A stretch of 64,000 bases of DNA from Parcubacteria group bacterium (lineage in GTDB: Bacteria > Patescibacteriota > Minisyncoccia > Moranbacterales > UBA11712), in assembly GCA_041659065.1 (NCBI GenBank), contig JBAZYY010000001.1:163124-227123 (forward strand), in the 5' to 3' direction. The notes under the pieces are model-generated. The model saw only the letters and a list, made by a program, of their open reading frames with translations. It was not told the origin of the DNA and ran no database searches. Below, piece by piece: positions 7,447 to 20,083 of the stretch. Each line of letters starts with the position of its first letter. Within the stretch, counting starts at the first letter, position 1. Both the position numbers and the translations under genes were made by a program.

Positions 7447-9918
7447 CTAATCTAATACATCTCGGATGTTAAGCGCAAGCCGGCTGCCTTTTTGGATTTC
7501 ACCGCTGATTATTTTTTTCACTATCCTATCTCCGATCCGGTCTTGAATAAACCGGTCAATTGATCTCGCGCCGAATTTTTTATCATAGCCTTTTTCCACG
7601 ATAAATTTAGGGAATTCCGGATTGAAAATGACGTCGATATTCTCAACATTTTTCAGATTTTCAGCATATTTAATCAGCAGATGCTTCGCAACTTCAATAA
7701 TCTCAGCCTGCGTGAGCGGCGAAAAAAATATTACTCCTTCAAAGCGATTCAGAAATTCCGGCTTGAATATCCCTTTTTCTATGACATAATTTATAACTTC
7801 TTCCCTGACTTTGTCCGGTTCGGTATCTTTTTCAATCGCAGCCTTAATAATATCCGAAGCCGCGTTAGAGGTGGCTATTATTATTTCATTTTTAAAACTG
7901 ATTTTTTTCCCGAAAGCATCGGTCAACCATCCTTCGTCAAGAACCTGTAAAAATAAACTGAGAATATCCGGGTGAGCCTTTTCAACCTCATCGAGGAGAA
8001 GAAGAGAATAGGGATTTTCCTTCACTTTGTTGGTTAGTTGGCCCGAAAATCCCGATTCCGGAGATCCCAAGAGGCGGTTGATCGATTCTTGCCTTTGAAA
8101 TTCACTCATATCTAGCCGGATCATCCTTTTTTCATCGCCAAAATATGCCTCCGCGAGAGCTTTGGCGGATTCGGTTTTTCCCACCCCGGTAGGACCCAGA
8201 AAGAGAAAGCTTCCCAGTGGTTTATTGGCGTTTGCCATGCCGGTCCGCGCCCTCCGGATAGTTTCCGCAATTTGCTTGATCGCGAATTCTTGGCCGATAA
8301 CTCTTTGGTGAAGAACTTTTTCCATGTCAATCAGTCTGTCTTTTTCACCTTCGGTTATCTCGCCAACTGGGATTTTATATTTTTTCGAAACAACTTCATC
8401 CACCGTTTCCGGAAGAATGTACTTTTCATTTGAAATATGGCTCCAATAAAGAAGGACTTCCTCCAAAAGGTCAAGCGCTTTTTCAGGAAAAGGCGAATCG
8501 CTGATATATTTTTCACAGGATCTCACAATTTCTCTGAGAGCTTGATAGGTGAATATTACTCCGTCTTTTTCGAGCTCTTCTAGCTTTCTAAAGAGCACGT
8601 CTAGAGTTTCTTTCGCGCTCATTTCTTCAATCTGTACTTTTTCGAAATATTTAAGCACCTGCTCATGGCTTTCAATGTCCCCGTGGTAATTTTCCGGCGT
8701 AGAAAGTCCTATAATTTGAAAGTTAGGGTAAGCTAGAAATTCAGACAGCACTGCGGATATATTTTCTCCGGCATTTTTGGGATCTTTCTTGAGATAGCGA
8801 TCTATATTTTCAATAACCAGGATAATATTTCCGGCATAAGTCGCTTCAAAAAAAACTTTTCTGAGGATTTGTTCGATTTCCTGTTGGTGCGTGACGCCGG
8901 ATACAACCTCCCCGATATTAAGCACCAGCACTCTCTTTGTGCCGACCGCTGAATATATGCGATGTTCCCTGATCCTTTTGGCCAGATGATGAGCTAGCGA
9001 CATTTTTCCCGTCCCGGCTTCTCCAATCAACAAAATACTGTTCTGTGACGGCCTTGTCAGGATTAATTCCAGCATCTCAATATCCTGATACCTGCCTTTC
9101 TCATCATCATCCTTATAATCAGTAAAGTCTCCTTTGGACAAATCAGAAGAATACTTATCCAAATTTACTGTGTATGCGAATGTCCAGTCTGCCCCGATTG
9201 GGCGTTTGGCAAATAAATTTTCCCTTGACCAAAATCTTTTTTTAAGCAGCCTTTTGTTTTCCCGCTCCGACTCCCACGCTATTATTTTTTGAAATTCTTC
9301 AGCAGTAACTTCGTAACGTTTAAGATTATCGGACGTTGGGCCGGTCTTTTCAATAAAAAGAATGCCGGGATCGTCTTTTTCAACTCCAATCCTGTTCCAG
9401 ACTCTCTTGAACCATTCCTTTTTTAGATACTGCTTGAAGCTATCCGCGCCTTCGTCTTCCTTTGAATGGAAAAAAGCTTTTATGGAGATAATAAAAAGAA
9501 TGGCCGAAACTGCCAAAAAAACTCCGGCCGTAGCCGACAAGTACAGCGTCTTTGAGTAATAGGCCACGGCCAAAACAATACTTACAATCAAGACAAATGG
9601 GAGCAGCAACCATATAACAAGAATAATTACTCCAAAAACTAAAACTAGAAGCACTGCAATCAATCCAAAAATTGCCGTGAAAAGCCTCACAATTGCTCCC
9701 AGAAAACGCGTAATGAGATTTTCAAAAGCCGATTGGAGAAAAAGTATCGGATGTAATCCCCGCTCACCCACTCTCGAAATATCCCTTTTCCATGGCGAAA
9801 AAAGAGTCAGAAGCATTCTTGAAACGCCAAAATACCACCAAAAAAATGCCAGATAGTTCCTCCAGATTTCAAAAAATTTTTTCGTACCCTTCGAATAGTG
9901 CCAAAAAAAGAAATTCAT
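7447..9918 (-). CDS. membrane-anchored ClpA/ClpB-family AAA+ ATPase (N-terminal polytopic TM domain, degenerate D1, canonical D2)
   Basis: 823 aa. The first ~150 aa are strongly hydrophobic with several predicted TM helices. D1 has LLIGEAGTGKMSLAHHLAKRI, an atypical Walker A. D2 has LFLGPTGVGKTESAKALAEAYF and LLLLDEVEKAHPDILSLFLQVLDEG plus a ClpB D2-small-like C-terminus. Confidence 0.7.
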   Translation of the reverse strand: MNFFFWHYSKGTKKFFEIWRNYLAFFWWYFGVSRMLLTLFSPWKRDISRVGERGLHPILFLQSAFENLITRFLGAIVRLFTAIFGLIAVLLVLVFGVIILVIWLLLPFVLIVSIVLAVAYYSKTLYLSATAGVFLAVSAILFIISIKAFFHSKEDEGADSFKQYLKKEWFKRVWNRIGVEKDDPGILFIEKTGPTSDNLKRYEVTAEEFQKIIAWESERENKRLLKKRFWSRENLFAKRPIGADWTFAYTVNLDKYSSDLSKGDFTDYKDDDEKGRYQDIEMLELILTRPSQNSILLIGEAGTGKMSLAHHLAKRIREHRIYSAVGTKRVLVLNIGEVVSGVTHQQEIEQILRKVFFEATYAGNIILVIENIDRYLKKDPKNAGENISAVLSEFLAYPNFQIIGLSTPENYHGDIESHEQVLKYFEKVQIEEMSAKETLDVLFRKLEELEKDGVIFTYQALREIVRSCEKYISDSPFPEKALDLLEEVLLYWSHISNEKYILPETVDEVVSKKYKIPVGEITEGEKDRLIDMEKVLHQRVIGQEFAIKQIAETIRRARTGMANANKPLGSFLFLGPTGVGKTESAKALAEAYFGDEKRMIRLDMSEFQRQESINRLLGSPESGFSGQLTNKVKENPYSLLLLDEVEKAHPDILSLFLQVLDEGWLTDAFGKKISFKNEIIIATSNAASDIIKAAIEKDTEPDKVREEVINYVIEKGIFKPEFLNRFEGVIFFSPLTQAEIIEVAKHLLIKYAENLKNVENIDVIFNPEFPKFIVEKGYDKKFGARSIDRFIQDRIGDRIVKKIISGEIQKGSRLALNIRDVLD

Positions 9919-10000
9919 TTTGTTTTTGCGTTCGTGCTTTTATATTAGCATAATCCAGCTAAACATAAAAACCGCATCTTAGGAAGCTGTTTTATTTTGA
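9900..10000. repeat. left copy of a diverged ~100-bp direct repeat bounding the accessory island (includes the first codons and upstream region of the ClpB-like gene)
   Basis: gccaaaaaaagaaattcattttgtttttgcg...ttagcataa...gctgtttt is repeated, with indels, at 18975-19080. Confidence 0.55.
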
Positions 10001-10169
10001 AAATTTTCTATTTCCCAACATCCGATGCTGAGAAGCGGCTAATTTTTACTTATAAATGGCTTCCAACTTTTTCGTCTGCTCCGAAAGCGCATCAAGTTTA
10101 GCGAATATTGATTTTTGCTTTGATACGGGTTTTCCTAGTATTGAATATTGGGAGGGGTTAATTACCCTG

Positions 10170-10218
10170 ATTCCTAAAGTTCGAAATTAGGATTGGTTTT
10201 CCTAACATTAAATGTTAG
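10170..10218. repeat. hairpin repeat pair (H1-like ttcctaaagttcgaaattagga plus H2 cctaacattaaatgttag)
   Basis: Inverted repeats are visible directly. Both families recur at eight intergenic sites in 10.1-14.1 kb. Confidence 0.6.
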
Positions 10219-10273
10219 AAACGGTTAGAGGGGCCAGAGGTGAATGCCCAAAAATCAAAACTCCTTTTATGGT

Positions 10274-11449
10274 TTATCTTTTCTCTAAAATATCATTAAG
10301 CGGTTTATATATATACCAGTACCCATCATGACGAGGCGGTGCATTTTTTAATACTGACAAGCCCTTCCTCGCATGATCTTTCATTATATCAATATTAGTT
10401 TTATTTATGCGCAACCCTAGTAATTCAAGCGACCGTCCAAGTCTATCGAGCTCATAATTGAAATCAGATTCTGCAGTTCTCGAGTGTAAAAGTTTTTCAA
10501 GATTACCTATTATTTCCTCAAATCTTTTTTCCCAATAAGTAGTTTCTTTTTCATAAAATATATTAATAAACTCATCCCTTAAATTTGTAATGATTTTTTC
10601 TCGCATTGCAAACTGTTCAACACTAAGGGGCACATCAGATTTGACATTACTATACTTGCCAAAGTCAAGGTTCTCAATCCGATTCTTTCCATGAAATATC
10701 GCATATGCGATGTGATTCGCAATAATATGCCTATCAAAATTATTTCCACCGATAATTGAGAACGCAACATTAAACTTTTTATCCCTATCTCCTTTTTTAA
10801 CATTTTCTAATGCATAAAATATTCCTTCGAATGATTTGTTTATTGTTGCTCTAGAACTAATGTACTCTGTAACATATAAAAAACCATTTTCGATTTTATT
10901 TTCTATTAACAAATTACTCACCACACTTTTCACGCCAGAACTGTCAAGGTTGTGATGCTTATGATCATGACCAATATCGAGTGAAACAAGTTCTGCTAAT
11001 TTTTCATTTTTTGTTTCATAGATTTTATTTATCGCCTTATGTATTATTTCCGCAGGCAATCGACCACTGCTATCTTCTGAAAAAACTACATCATAAGCAT
11101 GCGCATTAACTGCATCACGCATTTGTGGTACCATTTTTTCAAATGCACTCATCATTATATCACTGAGAAAATTAATCTCTGCATTTGGTGTTTTCCAATT
11201 TTCATGAAAGATTCTCGCCTCGGTTTCAGCCAATTCAATGGCAGTAACCTTGGGAAGGTTGAAAATTTTAAACAGAATACCCCTTTTCTTGTTTTTTAAT
11301 TTTGCCAATTCTTCCCATTCAGACCAAGATTCTAAAACTTCACGTCTTATAAAACCATTTTCAAGATTAACGAAATTAGCACGCTCGTCGCTTGGCAAAT
11401 CCTCAACTTTTTTATATTCAGCATTAAATGGATTAAATTTTTCTGACAT
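10274..11449 (-). CDS. hypothetical protein (island cassette gene, 391 aa)
   Basis: Long ORF whose ATG lies 28 nt downstream of the X promoter module. No family recognised. Contains a His-rich patch (SLDIGHDHKHHNLD). Confidence 0.55.
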   Translation of the reverse strand: MSEKFNPFNAEYKKVEDLPSDERANFVNLENGFIRREVLESWSEWEELAKLKNKKRGILFKIFNLPKVTAIELAETEARIFHENWKTPNAEINFLSDIMMSAFEKMVPQMRDAVNAHAYDVVFSEDSSGRLPAEIIHKAINKIYETKNEKLAELVSLDIGHDHKHHNLDSSGVKSVVSNLLIENKIENGFLYVTEYISSRATINKSFEGIFYALENVKKGDRDKKFNVAFSIIGGNNFDRHIIANHIAYAIFHGKNRIENLDFGKYSNVKSDVPLSVEQFAMREKIITNLRDEFINIFYEKETTYWEKRFEEIIGNLEKLLHSRTAESDFNYELDRLGRSLELLGLRINKTNIDIMKDHARKGLSVLKNAPPRHDGYWYIYKPLNDILEKR

Positions 11450-11476
11450 ACCCTCGTATTTTCGATTAATTATTTT

Positions 11477-11509
11477 CCCCTGCCGGAATTACGTAATCAG
11501 TTACGTAAC
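11477..11509 (-). promoter_or_regulatory. conserved promoter/operator module X: tandem TTACGTAA palindromes then CCGGC(A/G)GGGG, ~25-28 nt upstream of the cassette start codon
   Basis: The minus strand reads TTACGTAACTGATTACGTAATTCCGGCAGGGGAAAATAATTA. This fits a -35-like TTACGT, a 17-18 nt GC-rich spacer and a -10-like A/T hexamer, leaving a very short leader. Confidence 0.5.
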
Positions 11510-11517
11510 AAATTTTA

Positions 11518-11547
11518 TTCCTAAAGTCGAACTTTAGGAACGGTCAG
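11518..11547. repeat. H1 hairpin repeat ttcctaaagtcgaactttaggaa followed by cggtcag
   Basis: Perfect 10-bp arms (ttcctaaagt / actttaggaa) around cga. Identical copies lie at 13166-13188 and 13349-13371. Confidence 0.65.
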
Positions 11548-11944
11548 TTTTTCTTTCGAGAGACGGCGGATCGAGCGGGCGAAAGCTTGCTGATTGATTT
11601 TTCGCCATTCAGCCTTGATCAACCTTAGATTCCTATAGTACTGCCGGGGATCCCGGGAAAACCCCAAAGCGACGCCTCCCATAAACGCTAGCAATATTTT
11701 CTTTTTCACCGACCCTATCCTGTACATAAATATATTTTAGCATCAATATACGGCCGTGTCTAAAAACTGAATTGGAGCTGGAGAGTATAAATGTGGGTAT
11801 AAATTATAAATATTGAGCAAGGAAATATTCAACAGAATATAGCTTTAAGATACGGCCGTGGGTAAATGCTGGGTTGGGGAAAAAAGATGAAGGAGGTCGA
11901 ATGAAGTGCGAGCGAGAAAGTATTGCTGCTATTTTTCAATCCAT

Positions 11945-11980
11945 CCCCCGCCGGAATTACGTAATTGGTTACGTAATTAT
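11945..11980 (-). promoter_or_regulatory. X module copy (cccccgccggaattacgtaattggttacgtaattat)
   Basis: Same tandem TTACGTAA motif. No ORF starts at the usual 25-28 nt, so this cassette is probably degenerate. Confidence 0.4.
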
Positions 11981-11985
11981 CTTTA

Positions 11986-12010
11986 CCCTAACATTCAATG
12001 TTGAGTTGGG
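11986..12010. repeat. H2 hairpin repeat (ccctaacattcaatgttgagttggg) immediately 3' of the stop codon at 12011
   Basis: The arms aacatt / aatgtt form a palindrome. The same family occurs at 10201-10218 and 13556-13656. Confidence 0.55.
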
Positions 12011-12562
12011 TTATTTTTTTAGCTTCTTTTTTTCTTCAACTTTCGGCCAGCTGGCGCCCCGAAGCTTAATTTGATCCTGTCTTTTCGCAACCCATTGTCT
12101 GTGCGCGTCAACATTATTCTCTTCCAGACTTGGATGCCTCCAAACTTGTTCTGGAGGAGGTATTTGCCCTTTTTTTATCAGCACATTTTCTTGATATTTC
12201 GCTTGTTGCTTTTTTCTTCTGCCTCCAATACTGAAATATCTTTTGGTTTCTTTTCTCCTTTTTGCTCGCTTGGCTATTCCCTGAAGGATTATCTCCTCGG
12301 GATTTTCAATATTGGATTCACTATCAACATATCTAAAAGTATGAGGATTATCTTCCGGCTCAGCAACCTTTCTAATATTTGGTTTCCCGCTGTCTTTTTT
12401 GAATTGCCGTTTTTTTACAGGAACCGTATCGCCTATTTTTTCCCGAACGCCCAGAGGCCCTCCAGATTCGACTCGCAAATCATCTTCAGTTTGGTGCGCC
12501 GATTCTCCGAAATTATTTTCCTTTAATTGATCCACGAGATCCGGTCTTTCGAGTTTTGGCAT
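12011..12562 (-). CDS. hypothetical highly basic protein (183 aa, K/R/E-rich, likely nucleic-acid-binding)
   Basis: The ORF's ATG lies 24 nt downstream of the X module at 12586-12621. Composition is low-complexity basic. Confidence 0.55.
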   Translation of the reverse strand: MPKLERPDLVDQLKENNFGESAHQTEDDLRVESGGPLGVREKIGDTVPVKKRQFKKDSGKPNIRKVAEPEDNPHTFRYVDSESNIENPEEIILQGIAKRAKRRKETKRYFSIGGRRKKQQAKYQENVLIKKGQIPPPEQVWRHPSLEENNVDAHRQWVAKRQDQIKLRGASWPKVEEKKKLKK

Positions 12563-12585
12563 ATATTATTCTTTATTTATTATCT

Positions 12586-12621
12586 CCCCCGCCGGAATTA
12601 CGCAATTAGTTGCGTAATTAT
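12586..12621 (-). promoter_or_regulatory. X module copy (cccccgccggaattacgcaattagttgcgtaattat)
   Basis: Minus strand reads TTGCGT, then 17 nt AATTCCGGCGGGGGAGA, then TAATAA, then 14 nt, then ATG. This is the best sigma70-like arrangement of the four copies. Confidence 0.5.
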
Positions 12622-12624
12622 TCT

Positions 12625-12645
12625 CGCTAAGGTTCAACCTTAGCG
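12625..12645. repeat. hairpin cgctaaggttcaaccttagcg (perfect 10-bp arms) overlapping the stop codon of the upstream cassette gene
   Basis: Revcomp of cgctaaggtt is aaccttagcg. The TAA of ORF 12640..13155 lies inside the 3' arm. Confidence 0.6.
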
Positions 12646-13155
12646 AAGCTCTAGTTTCTCAATTATTTTTTTAAATGCCCCATATCCTCTGTATGACTCA
12701 CCTGATATATATTCTCCACTTTCATCTTTATATTTTTTTATTTCGCCATTTTCTTTAATTTCCCTCAACTCTGAAATAATTTCCCAAAGCAAATTAACAA
12801 AATCTTTACCCAGATTCCGGTTATTAATGGCAAATTCAATAAAAACTTCGTCGCTGATTACCATTTTAAATGTTTCGAAGGATATTCCACTTATTCTTTC
12901 CTTATCAATTAATCTTTTATTATTATTAAACTCTAATAACAATGCCTTCTTGAGAATTTTATATTTATTTCCCCTTCTATAATTCTCTGCTTTTTCATTT
13001 AACTTAAATGCAACAAAAACACCAAGAAAAGTAGCGATTAAAACAAAAATGAATTGAGTAATATCTATTATTGTAATCAAGTTTAACTGATATAACAAAA
13101 TAACCAATAACAACACTAATAATATAAGGTATATAATAATTTTTTTGTTGCTCAT
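12640..13155 (-). CDS. hypothetical membrane protein (two N-terminal TM helices plus a soluble domain, 171 aa)
   Basis: Hydrophobic N-terminus IIIYLILLVLLLVILLY...FIFVLIATFLGVFVAF. No family recognised. Confidence 0.55.
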   Translation of the reverse strand: MSNKKIIIYLILLVLLLVILLYQLNLITIIDITQFIFVLIATFLGVFVAFKLNEKAENYRRGNKYKILKKALLLEFNNNKRLIDKERISGISFETFKMVISDEVFIEFAINNRNLGKDFVNLLWEIISELREIKENGEIKKYKDESGEYISGESYRGYGAFKKIIEKLELR

Positions 13156-13165
13156 AAATTTTTGA

Positions 13166-13188
13166 TTCCTAAAGTCGAACTTTAGGAA
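13166..13188. repeat. H1 hairpin repeat (ttcctaaagtcgaactttaggaa)
   Basis: Exact copy of the 11518-11540 element, 8 nt upstream of the start codon at 13155. Confidence 0.65.
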
Positions 13189-13279
13189 CGGTTAAGAGAA
13201 ATTGCAGTCTTGTCAAAAGCAAAGACTGGATTAGTATCCATTTCCTGTGGCGCTTTTTTGTCTTCGCGATCAAATGCCA
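13169..13279 (-). CDS. possible 36-aa basic peptide MAFDREAKKRHRKWILIQSLLLTRLQFLLTVPKVRL (cassette-positioned small ORF)
   Basis: The ATG lies 28 nt after the X module at 13308-13343, like the other cassette genes. The last 8 codons and the stop are supplied by the H1 hairpin. Confidence 0.3.
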   Translation of the reverse strand, partial: WHLIAKTKKRHRKWILIQSLLLTRLQFLLTVPKVRL

Positions 13280-13307
13280 TAAGATTAGAGATTTTTCTAA
13301 ATTATTA

Positions 13308-13343
13308 TCCCCCGCCGGAAATACGTATTTAAATACGTATTTA
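13308..13343 (-). promoter_or_regulatory. X module variant (cccccgccggaaatacgtatttaaatacgtatttat)
   Basis: Tandem ATACGTAT palindromes replace TTACGTAA. The CCGGCGGGGG and A/T-rich -10 region are conserved. Confidence 0.45.
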
Positions 13344-13348
13344 TTTTT

Positions 13349-13371
13349 ATTCCTAAAGTTCGACTTTAGGA
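13349..13371. repeat. H1 hairpin repeat (ttcctaaagttcgactttaggaa)
   Basis: Third H1 copy, followed by cggttaac. Confidence 0.6.
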
Positions 13372-13555
13372 ACGGTTAACTATTTTTTTTTGGCTTTGGC
13401 TTTCAGTTTTTTGAGGTGCGTGGCCGAATCACGGCAGGTGCAGTTTTTCGCGTGGCCACCGTGCCACTTTATTTTCTCCTCAAGAGTTGCATTTTTGGGC
13501 ATCTTGTTCTTCAAATGCCAGGTTTTGTTGATTTTCATCTTGTTTTATCGCTATT

Positions 13556-13656
13556 CTAACATTGAATGTGGGGTCGGGTTACCCTTGGACGGAAGTTTTG
13601 ACGAAAGCTCGGCTTTCGTCAGGTTTACCCCAACATTGAATGTTGGGTTGGGTTAT
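13556..13656. repeat. composite H2 element (two ctaacattgaatgtgggg-type palindromes flanking the hairpin gacgaaagctcggctttcgtc), a MITE-like insertion
   Basis: ctaacattgaatgtgggg ... gacgaaagc-tcg-gctttcgtc ... ccccaacattgaatgttgggttggg. The element supplies the last 22 codons and the stop of the truncated ATPase ORF. Confidence 0.5.
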
Positions 13657-13944
13657 TTCGATATTTTTATAACCGCTTGGGTCCCATTTATTATTTTTAA
13701 AAGCATAATTTTTACCATCTGTCATGATTTCAATACTCGGATTGTTATTTTGCCCAAGAGTTGATCTTTCTAATATATAAGTAGGATCGTTCCTCTCTAG
13801 AGATCTAAAGATTGCTGATAATGTAGTCTTTCCGCGACCATTCTCGCCAAATAGAACCGACATTTTTTTCAATTTCGTATCTCCTAGAGATTCATATTTT
13901 TCAAATCTTCCGACATGGAAGATTTTTATTACTTTTTCAATCAT
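13579..13944 (-). pseudogene. N-terminal fragment (~100 aa) of an ABC/SMC-type defence-associated ATPase (AAA_15/AAA_21-like), truncated by the H2 repeat element
   Basis: IFHVGRFEKYESL...MSVLFGENGRGKTTLSAIFRSL is a RecF/OLD/PrrC-type Walker A N-terminus; such proteins are >350 aa. Here the frame runs into repeat-derived sequence and stops after 121 aa. Confidence 0.55.
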
Positions 13945-14049
13945 AATAAATTATTTTCCTCCTTAATCCTAAATTTTCCAGATTTGACTAATTTTATACT
14001 ATTATAATTTTTCGGTTCCTTAAATTCGAATTGCCAAGTGGAATATTTT

Positions 14050-14072
14050 ATTCCTTAAGTTTAACTTTAAGA
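14050..14072. repeat. imperfect H1-like hairpin (ttccttaagtttaactttaagaa then cggttaatg)
   Basis: Degenerate copy of H1 at the 3' end of the DpnI-like operon. Confidence 0.4.
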
Positions 14073-14101
14073 ACGGTTAATGATTCTTCGTTAACATCGA
14101 C

Positions 14102-14257
14102 CTATTCCTCTTCGCGATCTTCTGATAAATCCTCAAGAAACCACTCTCTACCGCAAATACAGCTTCCCTGATATGAATACTGATATTGACCACCAATAAG
14201 TTTTATTGCAAGTTTATTTCCACATTTGCACTTTATCAACATCTGCTGATTATCCAT
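14102..14257 (-). CDS. possible 51-aa zinc-ribbon protein (MDNQQMLIKCKCGNKLAIKLIGGQYQYSYQGSCICGREWFLEDLSEDREEE)
   Basis: Two CxCG pairs. The ATG lies 5 nt after the stop of the 153-aa gene. Too short for the ORF track. Confidence 0.35.
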   Translation of the reverse strand: MDNQQMLIKCKCGNKLAIKLIGGQYQYSYQGSCICGREWFLEDLSEDREEE

Positions 14258-14261
14258 AAAT

Positions 14262-14723
14262 TTATTTGTATTTTTTTATCATCTCCAAGCACTCCTCATA
14301 TGCATCTGCCTTGCCGCCAATAAATTCATTTAGACCAAATTCTTCGATATTTTCACTCTCCCAAAATTCCTCTTTCCACTCCTTTCGATAATTTTTTGCT
14401 AATTCTGCGATATGAGCTTCGAGCGATTCTCCAGTAATTTTTTCCAAAAATCCTTTTGCCATCAGTCGTGTCGTAACTTCATCCAAATTTTGCAAATTTT
14501 CCCACAATTCAAACGTCTGATATTTGTCATCGCTTGCAATCATTTTCCATTCATCCGGTTCGACTTCGACAAAGTCATCGTCTTCTTCAGTGTATTCTTG
14601 GCACATGACCAGAAACGGGAAATAAAAATCTTTATGCGAGTCCAGATATTTCAGTATTTTTATTGCGATTTCTCTTGAAATTTTCATAAATTGACCAGAA
14701 ATTATCTTTTTGCTTCTGATCAA
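14262..14723 (-). CDS. acidic 153-aa protein encoded immediately downstream of the DpnI-like gene; possible DpnD-like partner
   Basis: E/D-rich. The gap to the DpnI-like gene is 24 nt. The pneumococcal DpnI cassette (dpnC-dpnD) has a similar small second gene of unknown function; I cannot verify sequence similarity. Confidence 0.45.
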   Translation of the reverse strand: MIRSKKIISGQFMKISREIAIKILKYLDSHKDFYFPFLVMCQEYTEEDDDFVEVEPDEWKMIASDDKYQTFELWENLQNLDEVTTRLMAKGFLEKITGESLEAHIAELAKNYRKEWKEEFWESENIEEFGLNEFIGGKADAYEECLEMIKKYK

Positions 14724-14747
14724 TTTTTGATCGTTTTAAAAACCTTG

Positions 14748-15548
14748 TCAAATAGCCAATTTATACTTTCCCCGCGAGACAAAATTCAGATAGCCTTTAT
14801 CCCTCAAAACTTGCAGTTGCTGACGCAGCTTGTCTTTGATGAAATTGTTGTCCGGATGTTTTTCTTTCAGTTCTTTTTCGAAAGCATACACGTCATCCAG
14901 TACAAATTCCCGTTTACCGATTTTATCGATGCAATTCATCGTATCCAAAATCCATCCTTTTCTCGTTAATTCTTTTTCTTCTCGCAAAAACAAGGTTTTG
15001 CTCCAATTTTCCAAAACATCTTTTTTGGCTTCCAGTTTTCCATCCTTGATATAAAATATCTTTCCGGATTGCGGAACGCTTTTAAGAACAATATTGCAAC
15101 CGACCCATCCGGCCCGCCGTGCATTTTCCGAGAGCGGTTTTCTTTTCTCGATTATCTCGGGAATAAAAAAGTGCTTCGGAATAACCATAAAATTAATAAC
15201 CGAAAAATTTTTCAAATTATAATTTAGGAAAAAGAAATTGGGATTGCGCTCGCTTTGCAACCGCTCAATCATTGTTCGATATGCACCGTCCACTATTTTT
15301 TTGCCCATTGAATCCTTTTTGCTTTTCAGCTCATATTCCTCTTTGCAGTCATCGCAATAGAAATCGGCTACCGGTCGATTGTTCTCAAAGTGATTGATGA
15401 TAGACCCACAAGCCGGACAAAAAATATTCCTCCCGACCCAATCCTCACTTACCGCTTTTATTTTTTGCGACGCATTGCTATATTTCTCCGCAAGTGTTGA
15501 GTCAAATACTATCTGCATAATTATTTTTGCTTCTAAAATCCTAATCAT
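14748..15548 (-). CDS. DpnI-like methyl-directed (GmATC) type IIM restriction endonuclease, Dam-replacing family
   Basis: The ORF has SQKIKAVSEDWVGRNIFCPACGS..NHFENNRPVADFYCDDCKEEYELKSKK, NPNFFFL, RRAGWVGCNI, MNCIDKIGKREF and RQQLQVLRDKGY...RGKYK. These match my recollection of R.DpnI along its whole length. Confidence 0.78.
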   Translation of the reverse strand: MIRILEAKIIMQIVFDSTLAEKYSNASQKIKAVSEDWVGRNIFCPACGSIINHFENNRPVADFYCDDCKEEYELKSKKDSMGKKIVDGAYRTMIERLQSERNPNFFFLNYNLKNFSVINFMVIPKHFFIPEIIEKRKPLSENARRAGWVGCNIVLKSVPQSGKIFYIKDGKLEAKKDVLENWSKTLFLREEKELTRKGWILDTMNCIDKIGKREFVLDDVYAFEKELKEKHPDNNFIKDKLRQQLQVLRDKGYLNFVSRGKYKLAI

Positions 15549-15603
15549 CCCGTCAGCAATATTTTATATAGATTGACGAGTAGGTTGTCTTTAATCCCTA
15601 TCT

Positions 15604-16203
15604 TTATTTCTTAACCCCAATAAACTCCCAAAATCCTCCTGATTTATCATCTCCGTGAACTTTCATAGCTTTTTTAAGTTTGTCTATTTTTACCAATCTC
15701 CATTTAGGCTGGTTTACCGAAGGATCAATCAATCTAACTATTCCTTTTGGCGGATAAATCCTATCCAAAACACAAACATGACCTCCACCACTCTCTTCAT
15801 TTTTTAATATTCCGTGATTGAAACAGACCAGCATGTCCTTATCCTTTTTAACCGCATCAGTAATAAATTTTTCAAAATCCATCTGGTTAAAACGACTGAT
15901 TGGATGATATATCATTTTCAATGGAATTTTCAGCTTGGGAAAAATTGTGTTGGGATGATTTCGCTTAAGATAGATCTGAGTCCCATATCCTGACGGCGGC
16001 TTTTTGCCGGTTCTGGCATTCCAAAATAATTCCTTATATTCTTTGTCCACAATCAGCCCTAAATGATAGCCCAATAATTCCTGTGGCAACAATGGAATTC
16101 CATTTTTATACATAATCATAGAAATGCATGTTGGAACACAGCATGATTTTTGCTGGGCTAATGGGACATATCTTGAATCTTTTGGAACAATTTCTTTTTT
16201 CAT
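15604..16203 (-). CDS. papain-like cysteine peptidase, C39-like domain protein (standalone, 199 aa)
   Basis: An N-terminal Cys motif (CCVPTCISMIMYKNG) fits the C39 CxxxC(L/I)(A/S)M(I/L) pattern. A downstream His motif (GGGHVCVLD) is also present. Confidence 0.45.
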   Translation of the reverse strand: MKKEIVPKDSRYVPLAQQKSCCVPTCISMIMYKNGIPLLPQELLGYHLGLIVDKEYKELFWNARTGKKPPSGYGTQIYLKRNHPNTIFPKLKIPLKMIYHPISRFNQMDFEKFITDAVKKDKDMLVCFNHGILKNEESGGGHVCVLDRIYPPKGIVRLIDPSVNQPKWRLVKIDKLKKAMKVHGDDKSGGFWEFIGVKK

Positions 16204-16404
16204 TTTTTACTCCGATAATCGCGGACGGTCATAGAAGGGATTACTTATTTATCCTACATAATTGCCTTTTATAAAGCAAATATCATCAGTTATCCACAAT
16301 TTAGTTGAAATATTTTTCGAATTATGCAAGTATTATAAGTACCAAGACCTGTATTCCGAACTATCACCGGATGGTGGTGTGGCTGGGACAACCAGTCTAG
16401 GAAC

Positions 16405-16440
16405 GTGGTCGGAGATAGCCCTTCGGGGCTGTTTTTTGTT
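16405..16440 (+). terminator. plus-strand rho-independent terminator-like hairpin (agccc-ttcg-gggct then gttttttg)
   Basis: A GC stem followed by a T-run on the plus strand only. It lies between divergent/convergent minus-strand genes. Confidence 0.4.
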
Positions 16441-17065
16441 ATTTGAAAGGCCATTCATCTTCAATATGCTTCTTTATTATACTTTTGTATACGGCGCGAT
16501 CATTTTTTGTATTGTCATAGCTTCTTCGAATGCTTCCCGCAGTCATATCAGCCATTTGTATGAGGACATTGCTTTTTGAATTTACAAGACGGCAATTTTT
16601 GATGATTTTCGTTTGTTTGGAATTAAGTTGCTTTCTCAAATACGTGATAAAACTTTTTCGAAACACTCTGTCACCGCTTCCGTCAATTTTTATCGATGCA
16701 TTGAAAATCGTGGAATTGTTATATTTGAGAAGTGTCTTGATTATATAGCTGTAAAAAGAATCTTTGCTGTTTTTCAATTCGTCGCTTCTGATTATCTTCT
16801 TATCGACGACGAGAGACCTGATTCTAAACTCGAATTTGTTCACTGTTTGGAGAAATTTTTCTCTCACATCTTTTCGGGATTTGTTGAATTTGAATTCAAC
16901 CTTATCCGAAAACTTCAAGTTTCTTCTCAATTCTTTTATCGCAACTGCGGCTTTTTCCGCTTCCAGATTATCATCAAAAATAACTGCACTTATCACAAAA
17001 AAGTCAGTTGAGCCCCTTTCGAATTTGAAGCCGGCGTCGCCGGAGTCATCAATGAAAACCAGCAT
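16439..17065 (-). CDS. DUF3800 family protein
   Basis: N-terminal MLVFIDDSGD and a later IQMADMTAGSIRRSY motif are characteristic of DUF3800. Confidence 0.65.
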   Translation of the reverse strand: MLVFIDDSGDAGFKFERGSTDFFVISAVIFDDNLEAEKAAVAIKELRRNLKFSDKVEFKFNKSRKDVREKFLQTVNKFEFRIRSLVVDKKIIRSDELKNSKDSFYSYIIKTLLKYNNSTIFNASIKIDGSGDRVFRKSFITYLRKQLNSKQTKIIKNCRLVNSKSNVLIQMADMTAGSIRRSYDNTKNDRAVYKSIIKKHIEDEWPFK

Positions 17066-17611: not shown

Positions 17612-17655
17612 AGGCACCCCGCCAATGGCGGTGGCAGTCTTAGTTAAATTTGTGG
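17612..17655. repeat. copy of the 44-nt tRNA-locus repeat gcaccccgccaatggcggtggcagtcttagttaaatttgtgg
   Basis: Identical to 19226-19262, which lies directly 3' of the intact tRNA-Tyr. Confidence 0.6.
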
Positions 17656-17789
17656 ACAGTTTGGGACAAAGTTGGAACATACCTCGCTTTGCATAGTTAT
17701 TCTACGTAATTTGAGAGAATTTGCCAATTTGCACTATTTTGCTTTATGTAATATTATTTTTTTAGGGGGATTATCAGTAATTTAAATAA

Positions 17790-18974: not shown

Positions 18975-19080
18975 GCCAAAAAAAAGAAATTCATTTTGTT
19001 TTTATTTGCGGTGTTGCTGGTATTTTAGCATAAAAAAGACAAACTTAAAAACAGCCTTTTAATGAAAGACTGCTTTTACG
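18975..19080. repeat. right copy of the island-bounding direct repeat (contains a pseudo-start ATGAATTTCTTTTTTTTGGC duplicating the first codons of the ClpB-like gene)
   Basis: gccaaaaaaaagaaattcattttgtttttatttgcgg...ttagcataaaaaagacaaacttaaaaacagcc... aligns with 9900-10000. Confidence 0.55.
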
Positions 19081-19154
19081 ATTACTTAAGTTGTTTGTGG
19101 TACCTTTTGGTTAAAATCCGAACTTTTTTTGACGAAAATCCGGATTTTGAAAAT

Positions 19155-19204
19155 TGGCGGGTAGGGAGGGATTCGAACCCCCGTAGCCCGAAGGCGCCAG
19201 ATTT
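19155..19204 (-). pseudogene. tRNA-Tyr 3' fragment (anticodon-loop position ~36 to the 3' end, with encoded CCA)
   Basis: Minus strand reads AAATCTGGCGCCTTCGGGCTACGGGGGTTCGAATCCCTCCCTACCCGCCA. It is identical to the 3' part of the intact tRNA-Tyr apart from the discriminator base. Confidence 0.7.
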
Positions 19205-19258
19205 ATGTCGCCTCTTGCGGCACCCCGCCAATGGCGGTGGCAGTCTTAGTTAAATTTG

Positions 19259-19341
19259 TGGGTAGGGAGGGATTCGAACCCCCGTAGCCCGAAGGCGCCA
19301 GATTTACAGTCTGGTACAATTGGCCGCTCTGTCACCTACCC
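19259..19341 (-). tRNA. tRNA-Tyr (anticodon GTA), long variable arm, no encoded CCA
   Basis: The tRNA reads GGGTAGGTGACAGAGCGGCCAATTGTACCAGACTGTAAATCTGGCGCCTTCGGGCTACGGGGGTTCGAATCCCTCCCTACCCA. Acceptor arms are GGGTAGG / CCTACCC. Anticodon stem CCAGA / TCTGG carries loop CTGTAAA. Confidence 0.85.
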
Positions 19342-19342
19342 G

Positions 19343-19594
19343 TTACTTTATTCTTTTAATCAATTTTTTAAACGCGTCACCACCTTTGTATGATTTTATC
19401 CGTAATTCTCTTTTGTAAGCATCATTCTTAGTATTATATTCTTCCGTATAAATAATTTTCCAGGGACGAGCACTCTTAGTCGATCTTACTAATCCTCGGT
19501 TATGTCTTTCCAGTCTATTATTTAAGTCCTGCGTACGGCCAATATAATATTTATTAGATTTTTCTATAGATTCTAAAATATATACTCTATACAT
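19343..19594 (-). CDS. GIY-YIG nuclease family protein (UPF0213/YhbQ-like, 83 aa), copy 1
   Basis: YRVYILES...YYIGRTQDLNNRLERHN...PWKIIYTEEY...KRELRIKS matches the small GIY-YIG family signature. The stop codon lies 1 nt from the tRNA-Tyr 5' end. Confidence 0.75.
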   Translation of the reverse strand: MYRVYILESIEKSNKYYIGRTQDLNNRLERHNRGLVRSTKSARPWKIIYTEEYNTKNDAYKRELRIKSYKGGDAFKKLIKRIK

Positions 19595-19693
19595 AACATA
19601 ATAGCATGAACATTCTGATTTATGCCGCCCCTAGCGGCACCCCGCCAACGGCGGTGGCAGTCTGGTACAATTGGCCGCTCTGTCACCTACCCG

Positions 19694-19945
19694 TTACTTT
19701 ATTCTTTTAATCAATTTTTTAAACGCGTCACCACCTTTGTATGATTTTATCCGTAATTCTCTTTTGTAAGCATCATTCTTAGTATTATATTCTTCCGTAT
19801 AAATAATTTTCCAGGGACGAGCACTCTTAGTCGATCTTACTAATCCTCGGTTATGTCTTTCCAGTCTATTATTTAAGTCCTGCGTACGGCCAATATAATA
19901 TTTATTAGATTTTTCTATAGATTCTAAAATATATACTCTATACAT
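19694..19945 (-). CDS. GIY-YIG nuclease family protein, copy 2 (identical)
   Basis: The ORF has 100% identical translation to copy 1. Confidence 0.7.
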   Translation of the reverse strand: MYRVYILESIEKSNKYYIGRTQDLNNRLERHNRGLVRSTKSARPWKIIYTEEYNTKNDAYKRELRIKSYKGGDAFKKLIKRIK

Positions 19946-20083
19946 AACATAATAGCATGAACATTCTGATTTATGCCGCCCCTAGCGGCACCCCGCCAAC
20001 GGCGGTGGCAGTCTGGTACAATTGGCCGCTCTGTCACCTACCCGTTTTAAAATAGTACTATTCGCTCCGCGTCATCAACCGGG

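Follow-up and report, generated by a model that had tools for sequence, protein, structure and literature searches.

Methyl-directed nucleases of the DpnI type are classified as solitary enzymes that need no partner, and it is established that R.DpnI of Streptococcus pneumoniae works alone in vitro. To our knowledge, no function has been found since the 1980s for the gene immediately 3' of dpnC in pneumococcus. Patescibacteria are largely without CRISPR and rely on restriction. Dam-methylation-sensitive promoters, such as the IS10 transposase promoter pIN and the pap and agn43 switches, are active in Dam+ hosts, where they track the hemimethylation cycle that accompanies replication. The biochemistry of R.DpnI (PMC3424567) and the layout of the pneumococcal dpnC–dpnD locus (PMC4471560) serve here as points of comparison for a related locus in a Parcubacteria/Patescibacteria genome. 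It lies within a 64-kb stretch of DNA, all of which was analysed and which is referred to below as the window.

As in the pneumococcal cassette, a full-length orthologous nuclease, 57% identical to R.DpnI and of the same two-domain architecture, is followed by a small gene of no known function, and no cognate methyltransferase was found in the window. Unlike in pneumococcus, the downstream gene has no detectable relation to DpnD/PcfM (PF14207) and has its own predicted promoter containing GATC; moreover the cassette belongs to an ultra-small Parcubacteria bacterium and lies within a defence island, not at a fixed locus like pneumococcal dpn. A second parallel is found in drg (dam-replacing gene, NmeBII) of Neisseria meningitidis and Neisseria gonorrhoeae, which encodes a DpnI-family nuclease; the window protein is 44.7% identical to a gonococcal copy. 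The situation known from Neisseria, in which dam has been replaced by a Gm6ATC nuclease, is met in related Patescibacteria loci with truncated Dam N-termini, whereas the window locus has no dam remnant. Neither the partner gene described below nor its GATC-pair motif is present downstream of the Neisseria drg locus.

The explanation favoured here is, when judged jointly in all its parts, a probable one: the locus would be a mobile two-gene restriction cassette, extending on the minus strand from 15518 to about 14257 within an island of defence-gene remnants. All four minus-strand ORFs listed in the initial annotation were found (Table 1), and its description of a DpnI-type gene followed by a small acidic gene in a dpnC–dpnD-like layout, in a defence-type island, is supported. 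DNA homology to ten related cassettes spans DpnI and the 141-aa gene only, and DpnI–partner synteny is seen in three independent genomic contexts. The surroundings consist of a low-GC island of about 9 kb containing remnants of defence genes.

Table 1. Positions of the features discussed, numbered within the 64-kb window
Feature	Coordinates	Strand	Remarks
R.DpnI orthologue	14748..15518	-	256 aa; mechanical ORF runs to 15548
Acidic partner protein gene	14262..14687	-	141 aa, start MKISRE...
51-aa ORF, two CxCG pairs	14102..14257	-	putative zinc-ribbon mini-protein
Papain-fold C39-like cysteine peptidase/transferase homologue	15604..16203	-	199 aa, pI 9.6
Promoter-like element of 141-aa gene	14716..14751	-	sigma-70-like match
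Leader inverted repeat (GATCAGAAG...TTTCTGGTC)	14693..14721	-	5' arm takes in second GATC
Palindromic intergenic repeat (TTCTTAAAGTT/AACTTAAGGAA type)	14045..14088	.	just 3' of 51-aa ORF

The DpnI nuclease

The identification of the first gene as DpnI-like is borne out by several searches. PF06044 matches the protein over profile positions 1–182 of 183 (272 bits against a cut-off of 26.7), and PF17726, the C-terminal winged-helix domain, scores 111 bits against a cut-off of 23. The protein aligns over its full length with the R.DpnI structure 4ESJ (phmmer E=7.7e-87, 57% identity), and PADLOC calls it mREase_II (E=6.5e-118). The start codon is the ATG at 15518, not position 15548: this codon, Met11 in the mechanical ORF, is where both the alignment with 4ESJ and the DNA homology to the ten cassettes begin. 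DpnI and the peptidase gene are therefore separated by 85 nt rather than the 55 nt given originally.

The protein combines a PD-(D/E)XK nuclease, a Cys4 zinc site and a C-terminal winged-helix domain. Functional residues for comparison were taken from studies of R.DpnI (PMC3424567), with residue numbers derived from the aligned sequence. In the 4ESJ alignment the catalytic residues E25, D53, E64 and K66 are kept ('SEDW', 'PVAD' and 'EYELK'), as are the two CxxC pairs of the zinc site ('CPAC' and 'CDDC'), and the base contacts Q18, N48 and R126 are identical in the two enzymes. [quoted passage not shown] Since all of these functional residues are conserved, the enzyme is predicted to be a Type IIM, Gm6ATC-dependent nuclease which should cut only fully adenine-methylated GATC. 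A tblastn search of plasmids with DpnI gave matches limited to Neisseria and partial ones in Lactiplantibacillus.

The acidic partner gene and its predicted promoter

The gene downstream had been described as acidic, 153 aa long and separated from DpnI by 24 nt. Its acidity stands, with a pI of 4.47 and 35 D+E versus 18 K+R, but its dimensions have to be revised: the start at ATG 14687, backed by all 37 aligned relatives and by the public gene call, gives a protein of 141 aa which begins 60 nt past the DpnI stop. The N-terminal part of the protein is alpha/beta and its C-terminal domain helical, the latter with the motif EEFGLNEFIGGKAxAYEECL; the protein matched no known family or fold in Pfam and fold searches. 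When 1.84 billion representatives were searched exhaustively with a HMMER profile, just 139 relatives came up, all of them unnamed metagenomic proteins.

Sampling of loci started from the partner gene and not from DpnI, and the counts that follow are of partner-bearing loci. Canonical DpnI lies directly upstream of the partner in 48 of 59 loci, at gaps of 30–65 nt; in the remainder its place is taken by GmrSD, HsdR, HsdS, a TdeIII R-M pair, an SLFN helicase or a short DpnI domain. Mean identity is 71.9% for the partner versus 62.4% for DpnI, the partner being the more conserved in 49 of 51 loci. Judged by gene order and sequence conservation, the partner is a regular 3' companion of DpnI in Patescibacteria and evolves more slowly than the nuclease. 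Hundreds of loci in these bacteria have this partner, which differs from the pneumococcal one but is equally constant.

By its match to the consensus, the partner gene is predicted to have its own sigma-70-type promoter. A −35 hexamer, TTGACA (14751–14746), overlaps the TGA stop of DpnI, and a −10-like AAAAAT follows at 14728–14723; at 10/12 positions this is the best sigma-70-like match between 13.3 and 17.3 kb, on the assumption that the sigma-70 consensus is valid for Patescibacteria. The 17-nt spacer ends in a GATC (14729–14732), and a second GATC (14718–14721) overlaps or directly follows the −10 hexamer. Of 69 distinct upstream regions, 67 show the architecture TTGA(C/T)N-N13-GATC-AAnnAT and 64 the GATC pair, which is seen in 1.9% of random windows; there is one occurrence of the motif in the window. 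The pair comes in two forms, spaced by 7 and 11 nt, and in six of 67 loci a GATC is also found within the −35 hexamer (TTGATC). The target of DpnI and Dam is built into the promoter core, and gene and promoter stay together when GmrSD, Type I or TdeIII nucleases replace DpnI.

The leader contains a further inverted repeat. Across 19 distinct long-form leaders 89% of cells are paired, versus 24–62% when the pairing partner is slid, and four pairs are changed on both sides; the repeat might fold into a hairpin in the RNA or act as an operator in the DNA. The mRNAs of the short form are predicted to have no leader. The palindrome GATCAA...TTGATC was considered as an intrinsic terminator of DpnI and rejected, as it has a 6-bp stem and no T-run and was not called by the terminator scan. 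The initial annotation had overlooked both the GATC-bearing promoter and the occurrence of the partner beside other types of restriction enzyme.

If cleavage is limited to fully methylated GATC, DpnI would destroy phage or plasmid DNA with Dam-type methylation and spare the unmethylated host chromosome. Because the sequence read by DpnI and Dam lies in the promoter core, partner expression is probably linked to the state of GATC methylation in the cell; methylation might alter promoter activity, or DpnI might bind or cut at the promoter. As in the known Dam-sensitive promoters, GATC lies in or beside the −10 and −35 elements, where adenine methylation could change their use. Unlike in those cases the host is presumably without Dam, so that methylation would signal foreign Dam activity, and the linked gene stands beside a nuclease predicted to cut exactly the methylated form. 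Given that it is very acidic and lies beside several unrelated nucleases, the partner is more likely to be a general modulator of restriction, for instance a DNA-mimic-like brake or a restriction-alleviation factor, than a subunit of DpnI; charge, context and promoter all enter into this assignment.

It is tentatively suggested, as an idea more speculative than the cassette itself and rather unlikely in its full form, that the 141-aa gene and its two-GATC promoter together form a module which senses methylation and controls restriction systems in Patescibacteria without Dam. A foreign Dam would methylate the promoter, or DpnI would bind or cut it, changing the output of a broad-acting acidic nuclease modulator and moving the cell from protecting itself to full or abortive restriction, or back. 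Were the promoter responsive to methylation, the result would be a simple, testable case of a defence system which senses the epigenetic mark that it attacks, and a new restriction-associated protein family would be defined. Such a control module would represent a previously undescribed accessory family and a regulatory logic common to Type IIM, Type IV, Type I and Type II systems.

The partner can be compared with two groups of small proteins. Like Ocr and ArdA it is found beside restriction genes and carries a strong negative charge recalling DNA mimics; like the controller (C) proteins of R-M systems it has a promoter-overlapping palindrome, which recalls the C-box. Pfam and fold searches revealed no likeness to Ocr, ArdA or the HTH C-proteins, in sequence or in fold. 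Searches of IMG/VR, GenBank phages and PHROGs gave no sign of a phage origin or of anti-restriction homologues; the partner, unlike anti-restriction proteins, is encoded by its host beside the host's own nucleases. It also lies 3' and not 5' of the nuclease gene.

The GATC pair could instead serve as an operator for a protein and not sense methylation at all. In one such reading the 141-aa protein would be a DNA-binding autoregulator of the kind represented by R-M controller proteins, acting on the GATC palindrome as its operator, with GATC itself incidental. The palindrome does overlap the −10 region, as the operators of autorepressors typically do, the leader contains the further inverted repeat with its symmetric changes, and SelB-wing_3, a winged-helix model, gives weak matches in 11 of 37 relatives (best E 3.7e-06). 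This reading is nevertheless unlikely. The protein is strongly acidic throughout, no HTH family matched either the window protein or the 37 relatives, and fold searches returned no HTH or winged-helix fold. Going from one spacing of the GATC pair to the other rotates the half-sites by over one third of a helical turn, so that a fixed dimer would not easily fit both, and the use of TTGATC as the −35 hexamer in some loci suggests selection for GATC itself.

It is distinctly improbable that the 141-aa protein genuinely belongs with pneumococcal DpnD (DpnD/PcfM) as a highly diverged homologue and has the same role. Its gene has the place and orientation of dpnD, immediately 3' of a DpnI orthologue, and DpnD is likewise without known function. 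However PF14207 (DpnD-PcfM), the family model by which DpnD was represented in place of its own sequence, matched neither the window protein at E≤0.1 nor the 37 relatives at E≤10, nor the standalone relatives of the C-terminal domain, and the few relatives among the 1.84 billion representatives are all unnamed. DpnD homology was rejected when Pfam on the 37 relatives, a PDB profile search and the exhaustive HMMER search with cluster names yielded nothing in its favour. The term 'DpnD-like' therefore expresses likeness of position only.

Flanking genes and island

The initial annotation had envisaged a four-gene operon with two additional members, a peptidase gene upstream and a zinc-ribbon ORF downstream. 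The standalone, papain-like C39-type peptidase is partly as described: it has the papain fold with catalytic Gln, Cys, His and Asp in order, but C39 models do not match it, nor does any Pfam family at E≤0.1. Among its relatives PF13529 matches weakly in 19 of 32 (best E 3e-4) and PF03412 in 4 of 32 (best 4e-7). Compared with the Peptidase C39, C39_2 and phytochelatin-synthase-like papain-fold proteins of Pfam clan Peptidase_CA, the window protein is standalone and below every Pfam threshold, and its family is specific to Patescibacteria with no functional link to the DpnI cassette. An ABC transporter was not found among the peptidase neighbours, here or in the other contexts examined, nor was a double-glycine substrate near the window peptidase.

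That the peptidase and the zinc-ribbon protein are functional parts of the system, acting for example in proteolytic activation or regulation, is very unlikely. All four ORFs are on the same strand at short gaps, and the minus strand has no terminator-like site between them. A conserved DpnI promoter is not part of the cassette, so read-through from the peptidase gene may supply the DpnI transcript. A loose link to peptidases might also be seen in L018–L020, where an unrelated second C39 peptidase (PF03412, 169 aa) lies 26 nt upstream of DpnI, but this protein is found in one of the 80 partner-gene loci only. The peptidase family of the window is missing from all 80, and conversely the 11 genomic loci examined for this family have neither DpnI nor the 141-aa gene nor the 51-aa ORF. 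A 95%-identical copy is flanked by Fic and an unknown gene, and other members follow PBP2, DinB or NUDIX genes in housekeeping contexts. The homology shared by the ten related cassettes ends at the DpnI ATG. On these synteny and DNA-homology boundaries the C39 peptidase was ruled out as a cassette component and is a bystander, which removes a false lead.

The 51-aa ORF begins 5 nt past the 141-aa stop and does contain the two CxCG pairs ascribed to it, but is not a regular component, being shared with one other lineage only. A full-length homologue, uncalled, stands in the same place in L016/L017, and the window and L016 share both CxCG pairs. The ORF is missing from 80 of 80 other loci; in a search of 5.8 billion proteins its single match was itself, and it has no Pfam or NCBIfam match. 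By this distribution it is a sporadic add-on to the cassette, encoding a putative zinc ribbon. The intergenic repeat beyond it belongs to family D3, with four copies within 11.5–14.1 kb; it was not called by the G+C-rich terminator scan and is possibly the end of the transcription unit.

It is extremely unlikely that DpnI has decayed into an inactive gene here or has changed its specificity, leaving the locus without methyl-directed restriction: the island holds clear gene remnants, such as a 121-aa N-terminal fragment of an ATPase of about 750 aa, and some DpnI relatives are truncated (L051 and short 143-aa forms), but the window ORF is full length at 57% identity to R.DpnI, keeps the catalytic, zinc, base-contact, methyl-pocket and winged-helix residues, and is 85% identical to copies in other genomes, which points to purifying selection.

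Dam and GATC in the host

Compatibility of such a nuclease with its host depends on GATC methylation. No D12, Dam or N6_N4 methyltransferase homologue, Dam motif or Dam remnant was found in the 64-kb window, which is part of a contig of at least 339 kb; the absence of a Dam/GATC methyltransferase expected initially thus holds within the window. The under-representation of GATC that had been considered is not seen, the 222 sites in the window corresponding to an observed/expected ratio of 0.82, in the range of other 4-bp palindromes. Elsewhere, truncated Dam-type N-termini directly adjoin DpnI in L014/15/21, L025 and L094/95. A Dam methyltransferase beside the cassette in L014, L026 and L053 was considered as a paradox and set aside, as it belongs to the adjacent PD-Lambda-5 system.

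The DpnI nuclease and its acidic partner

All four minus-strand ORFs proposed in the initial annotation are present (see table) in this stretch of a Parcubacteria/Patescibacteria metagenome-assembled genome, and a Logan contig (L001) carries an identical four-gene stretch. The 266-aa ORF, which had been called a DpnI, scores 272 bits against Pfam PF06044 and 111 bits against PF17726, matches PADLOC mREase_II (E=6.5e-118), and can be aligned along the full length of the solved S. pneumoniae R.DpnI (4ESJ, E=7.7e-87), bearing out that call. Since this alignment begins at Met11 of the ORF, and the DNA shared with ten related cassettes at 15518, the true gene encodes 256 aa; the stop first assigned is retained and the start is not. 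The 4ESJ alignment was checked against the residues named in two R.DpnI structure papers (PMC3424567, PMC4117772): E25, D53, E64, K66, both CxxC pairs, Q18, N48, R126, L129, R135, W138, G140, K229 and R231 are all kept. The window encodes a DpnI orthologue with functional residues intact, bona fide as judged by sequence and probably specific for Gm6ATC. The nuclease itself is an unremarkable new member of a well-known family.

The acidic gene downstream was also shortened, since all 37 aligned relatives of its product start with MKISRE and the product is 141 aa long in public gene calls. It follows DpnI as had been described, but begins 60 nt past the stop (start 14687), not 24 nt. The protein is indeed acidic (pI 4.47), but its supposed likeness to DpnD was not upheld, as none of the 37 relatives matches DpnD/PcfM (PF14207) even at E<=10. 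No match was found in Pfam, NCBIfam, PADLOC or PHROG, and a PDB profile search returned nothing meaningful. The family has 696 members (60-88% identity); scanning 1.84 billion representatives exhaustively with HMMER yielded just 139 relatives, every one an unnamed metagenomic protein. Its C-terminal domain also occurs as standalone copies (motif EEYGLNEFxGGKAEAYEDCL). Such mini-proteins of 65-76 aa (P0302, P0306, P0308, P0314, P0316, P0323 and P0336) correspond to the last third of the partner protein, with the motif ESEDIEEYGLNEFxGGKAEAYEDCL. In a further relative, P0356 (210 aa), a CxxC...CxxC zinc ribbon and, behind it, a partner-type C-terminal domain form one fused protein, which resembles the layout in the window, where a zinc-ribbon ORF stands on its own 3' of the partner gene.

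In three independent contexts a DpnI gene is followed about 60 nt on by the partner gene. A partner-family profile retrieved 80 metagenomic loci, 59 of them with at least 900 nt upstream, and in 48 of these 59 the gene directly upstream, in the same orientation, is a canonical DpnI, usually at a gap of 30-65 nt. The exceptions are a truncated DpnI (L051), a 143-aa protein comprising the DpnI catalytic domain only (two loci), GmrSD (Type IV), a TdeIII endonuclease with its methyltransferase, Type I HsdS, Type I HsdR and a Schlafen-type helicase. The 141-aa protein is a real partner of DpnI, and its gene persists beside other nucleases too. The partner is the better conserved of the two: its identity to the window protein averages 71.9%, versus 62.4% for DpnI, and is the higher in 49 of 51 loci.

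A blastn comparison with the ten related cassettes gave homology from 15518 (the DpnI ATG) to 14257-14269 (the partner stop), continuing only in L016, through the 51-aa ORF to 14106. Given these bounds, the cassette carries a promoter for the partner and none for DpnI, which therefore relies on local transcription; in the window DpnI is possibly read through from the peptidase gene. The four-gene operon of the initial annotation is thus not supported, the mobile unit being DpnI and partner gene.

Coordinates of features in the window and in related loci
Feature	Location	Strand	Remark
Peptidase-like ORF	15604-16203	-	ORF present
DpnI ORF (mechanical)	14748-15548	-	266 aa
DpnI gene (revised start)	14748-15518	-	256 aa; R.DpnI alignment, DNA homology start
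'DpnD-like' ORF (mechanical)	14262-14723	-	ORF present
141-aa partner gene (revised start)	14262-14687	-	MKISRE start in relatives, public gene calls
51-aa ORF	14102-14257	-	ORF present
-35 TTGACA	14751-14746	-	overlaps DpnI TGA stop
First GATC, then AAAAAT (-10-like)	14729-14732 (GATC)	-	window promoter element
Second GATC	14718-14721	-	window promoter element
Leader inverted repeat	14693-14721	-	conserved, compensatory changes; also in long-form leaders of 18 other loci
D12 Dam-type remnant before DpnI	L014/L015/L021 (upstream of 4170/330/3170)		cut-off N-terminus
D12 Dam-type remnant before DpnI	L025 (upstream of 1989)		cut-off N-terminus
D12 Dam-type remnant before DpnI	L094/L095 (upstream of 1148/1204)		cut-off N-terminus
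PD-Lambda-5 3' of cassette	L014 5437-7764; L026; L053 4438-6573
Fic + 169-aa C39	L018 2610-4151		neighbours
Fic + 95%-identical copy of window peptidase	contig of P0001		neighbours
Peptidase paralogues	L004 3678-4325 and 6001-6579		54% and 62% identical to window protein
DUF3800-IX RNA motif	16346-16414	+	Rfam, 50.1 bits; gathering score 36.8
Terminator-like hairpin	16411-16436		at end of RNA motif
DUF3800 gene	16439-17065	-	PF12686; PADLOC candidate PDC-M04A
121-aa ORF	13579-13944	-	N-terminal Walker-A part of ATPase
25-nt direct repeat	9903-9927 and 18979-19003		perfect; ~28 nt with one indel
Palindromic intergenic repeats	10129-14088
tRNA-Tyr	19258-19341		surroundings (19151-19957 and 17613-17666) rearranged
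Copy of tRNA-Tyr 3' half	19151-19205		55 nt
Tandem duplication	19307-19606 and 19658-19957		perfect, 300 nt; tRNA-Tyr 5' part and 83-aa ORF
54-nt repeat	17613, 19219, 19636, 19987		four copies

A promoter with fixed GATC sites

The regions upstream of DpnI have nothing in common across the loci compared. The partner gene is constant, with its own promoter and GATC sites fixed inside it. The pattern TTGA(C/T)N-N13-GATC-AAnnAT, a -35 hexamer and a 17-nt spacer ending in GATC before a -10-like hexamer, fits 67 of 69 distinct regions upstream of the partner gene, and is kept where the upstream nuclease is not DpnI. The window copy is the best sigma-70-like match of its region, and no other instance of the architecture occurs in the 64 kb. 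A second GATC lies no more than 12 nt away in 64 of the 69 regions, with a start-to-start spacing of 7 nt in 38 and 11 nt in 24; such a pair occurs in only 1.9% of 100-nt stretches drawn at random from these loci. In six loci the -35 hexamer is itself TTGATC. A dimer operator could be imagined here, but selection on GATC itself is favoured by the two spacings and by those -35 boxes that contain GATC.

Short-form loci have their ATG 4-8 nt past the second GATC, and leaderless mRNAs are therefore predicted. In long-form loci, the window included, an inverted repeat taking in the second GATC lies in a leader of 29-32 nt. Across 19 distinct long-form leaders 89% of cells are paired, against 24-62% in slid controls, and four pairs have changed on both sides. 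The repeat may be either an RNA hairpin at the transcript 5' end or a DNA operator.

Host compatibility and a possible mechanism

The GATC depletion that the initial annotation had proposed to check for is not seen: the window has 222 sites (observed/expected 0.82). GATC being frequent and undepleted, host DNA would be vulnerable to DpnI if Dam-methylated. Within the 64-kb window no D12, Dam or N6_N4 methyltransferase homologue and no Dam N-terminal motif was detectable. Directly before the DpnI start, related loci carry truncated Dam-type N-termini of varied lengths (KPFVKWVGGK..., the longest reaching the EPFVGGGA SAM motif), and there the cassette occupies the site of a former dam gene. This echoes Neisseria drg, the 'dam-replacing gene' from which PF06044 takes its name. 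In L014/L021, L026 and L053 the D12 methyltransferase found two genes downstream is part of an adjacent PD-Lambda-5 system. PD-Lambda-5 (PD-Lambda-5_A and D12 methyltransferase) recurs directly 3' of the cassette, beside DpnI genes of only 28-85% mutual identity.

DpnI would restrict Dam-methylated invaders in a host that is presumably Dam-negative. Partner expression might be tied to methylation of the GATC sites in its promoter, or to DpnI acting there, and the partner might be a general nuclease modulator rather than a DpnI subunit; R.DpnI is active alone in vitro. That the promoter acts through methylation or DpnI is a tentative proposal, rather less than an even chance; the full sensor-plus-modulator model is unlikely. 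A full-text search found no paper combining DpnI with Patescibacteria or the Candidate Phyla Radiation, and papers mentioning dpnD call its function unknown (among them PMC4471560). The acidic family, its GATC promoter and its occurrence behind four restriction-enzyme classes therefore appear to be undescribed.

Neighbouring genes and the surrounding island

The 51-aa ORF with two CxCG pairs is real: L016/L017 have a full-length homologue in the equivalent place, with both pairs kept. The other 80 loci lack it, and no further homologue was found among 5.8 billion proteins, which makes the ORF a sporadic add-on and not the regular component first suggested.

The peptidase-like protein matched no Pfam model. 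Its family (487 matches, mostly Patescibacteria) has invariant Q17, C22, H142 and D160, and 19 of 32 relatives weakly match Peptidase_C39_2; the 'papain-fold, C39-like' label is therefore right at superfamily level. The proposed link to DpnI fails: DpnI, partner gene and 51-aa ORF are absent within 6 kb of the family in 11 of 11 genomic loci, and the family is absent from all 80 partner loci. Its members instead follow PBP2 in an mreBCD cluster or lie beside DinB and NUDIX genes, and a 95%-identical copy neighbours Fic and an unknown gene. Only the Hainich loci L018-L020 hint at a peptidase-DpnI link: there another C39 peptidase, of 169 aa, immediately precedes DpnI. In two unrelated contexts the gene directly upstream of a C39-like peptidase gene encodes a Fic domain, and the two may form a pair. 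Two peptidase paralogues lie 1.7 kb apart on L004, labelled 'uncultured Bdellovibrionales', and a further family member is on L013, which bears the label 'uncultured archaeon'; such labels may be binning errors or reflect spread beyond Patescibacteria.

Immediately upstream of the peptidase gene lie a DUF3800 gene and, adjoining it on the opposite strand, a DUF3800-IX RNA motif. Just downstream of the cassette the 121-aa ORF, also on L001, covers profile positions 1-97 of 784 of the AAA_13 / PADLOC PDC-S06 ATPase (~730-790 aa), and is a truncated defence-gene remnant. A 25-nt direct repeat, copying the start codon of gene 7447-9918 along with the sequence upstream of it, brackets a ~9-kb low-GC stretch (0.34-0.38 versus ~0.40-0.45) holding the cassette and other defence remnants. 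The repeats look like the boundaries of an inserted island, in which no integrase was seen. Several palindromic intergenic repeat families (for example TTCCTAAAGTCGAACTTTAGGAACGGTT, CCCGCCGGAATTACGTAAT..., CCTAACATTCAATGTTGAG) lie on either side of nearly every small island gene; the copy at 13622-13655 shares 97% identity with L014:97-130 from another genome, and the repeats may therefore be MITE-/REP-like and shared among Patescibacteria. Finally, the rearranged tRNA-Tyr region, whose duplicated 83-aa ORF is GIY-YIG-like by eye, may mark an integration hotspot or result from faulty assembly.
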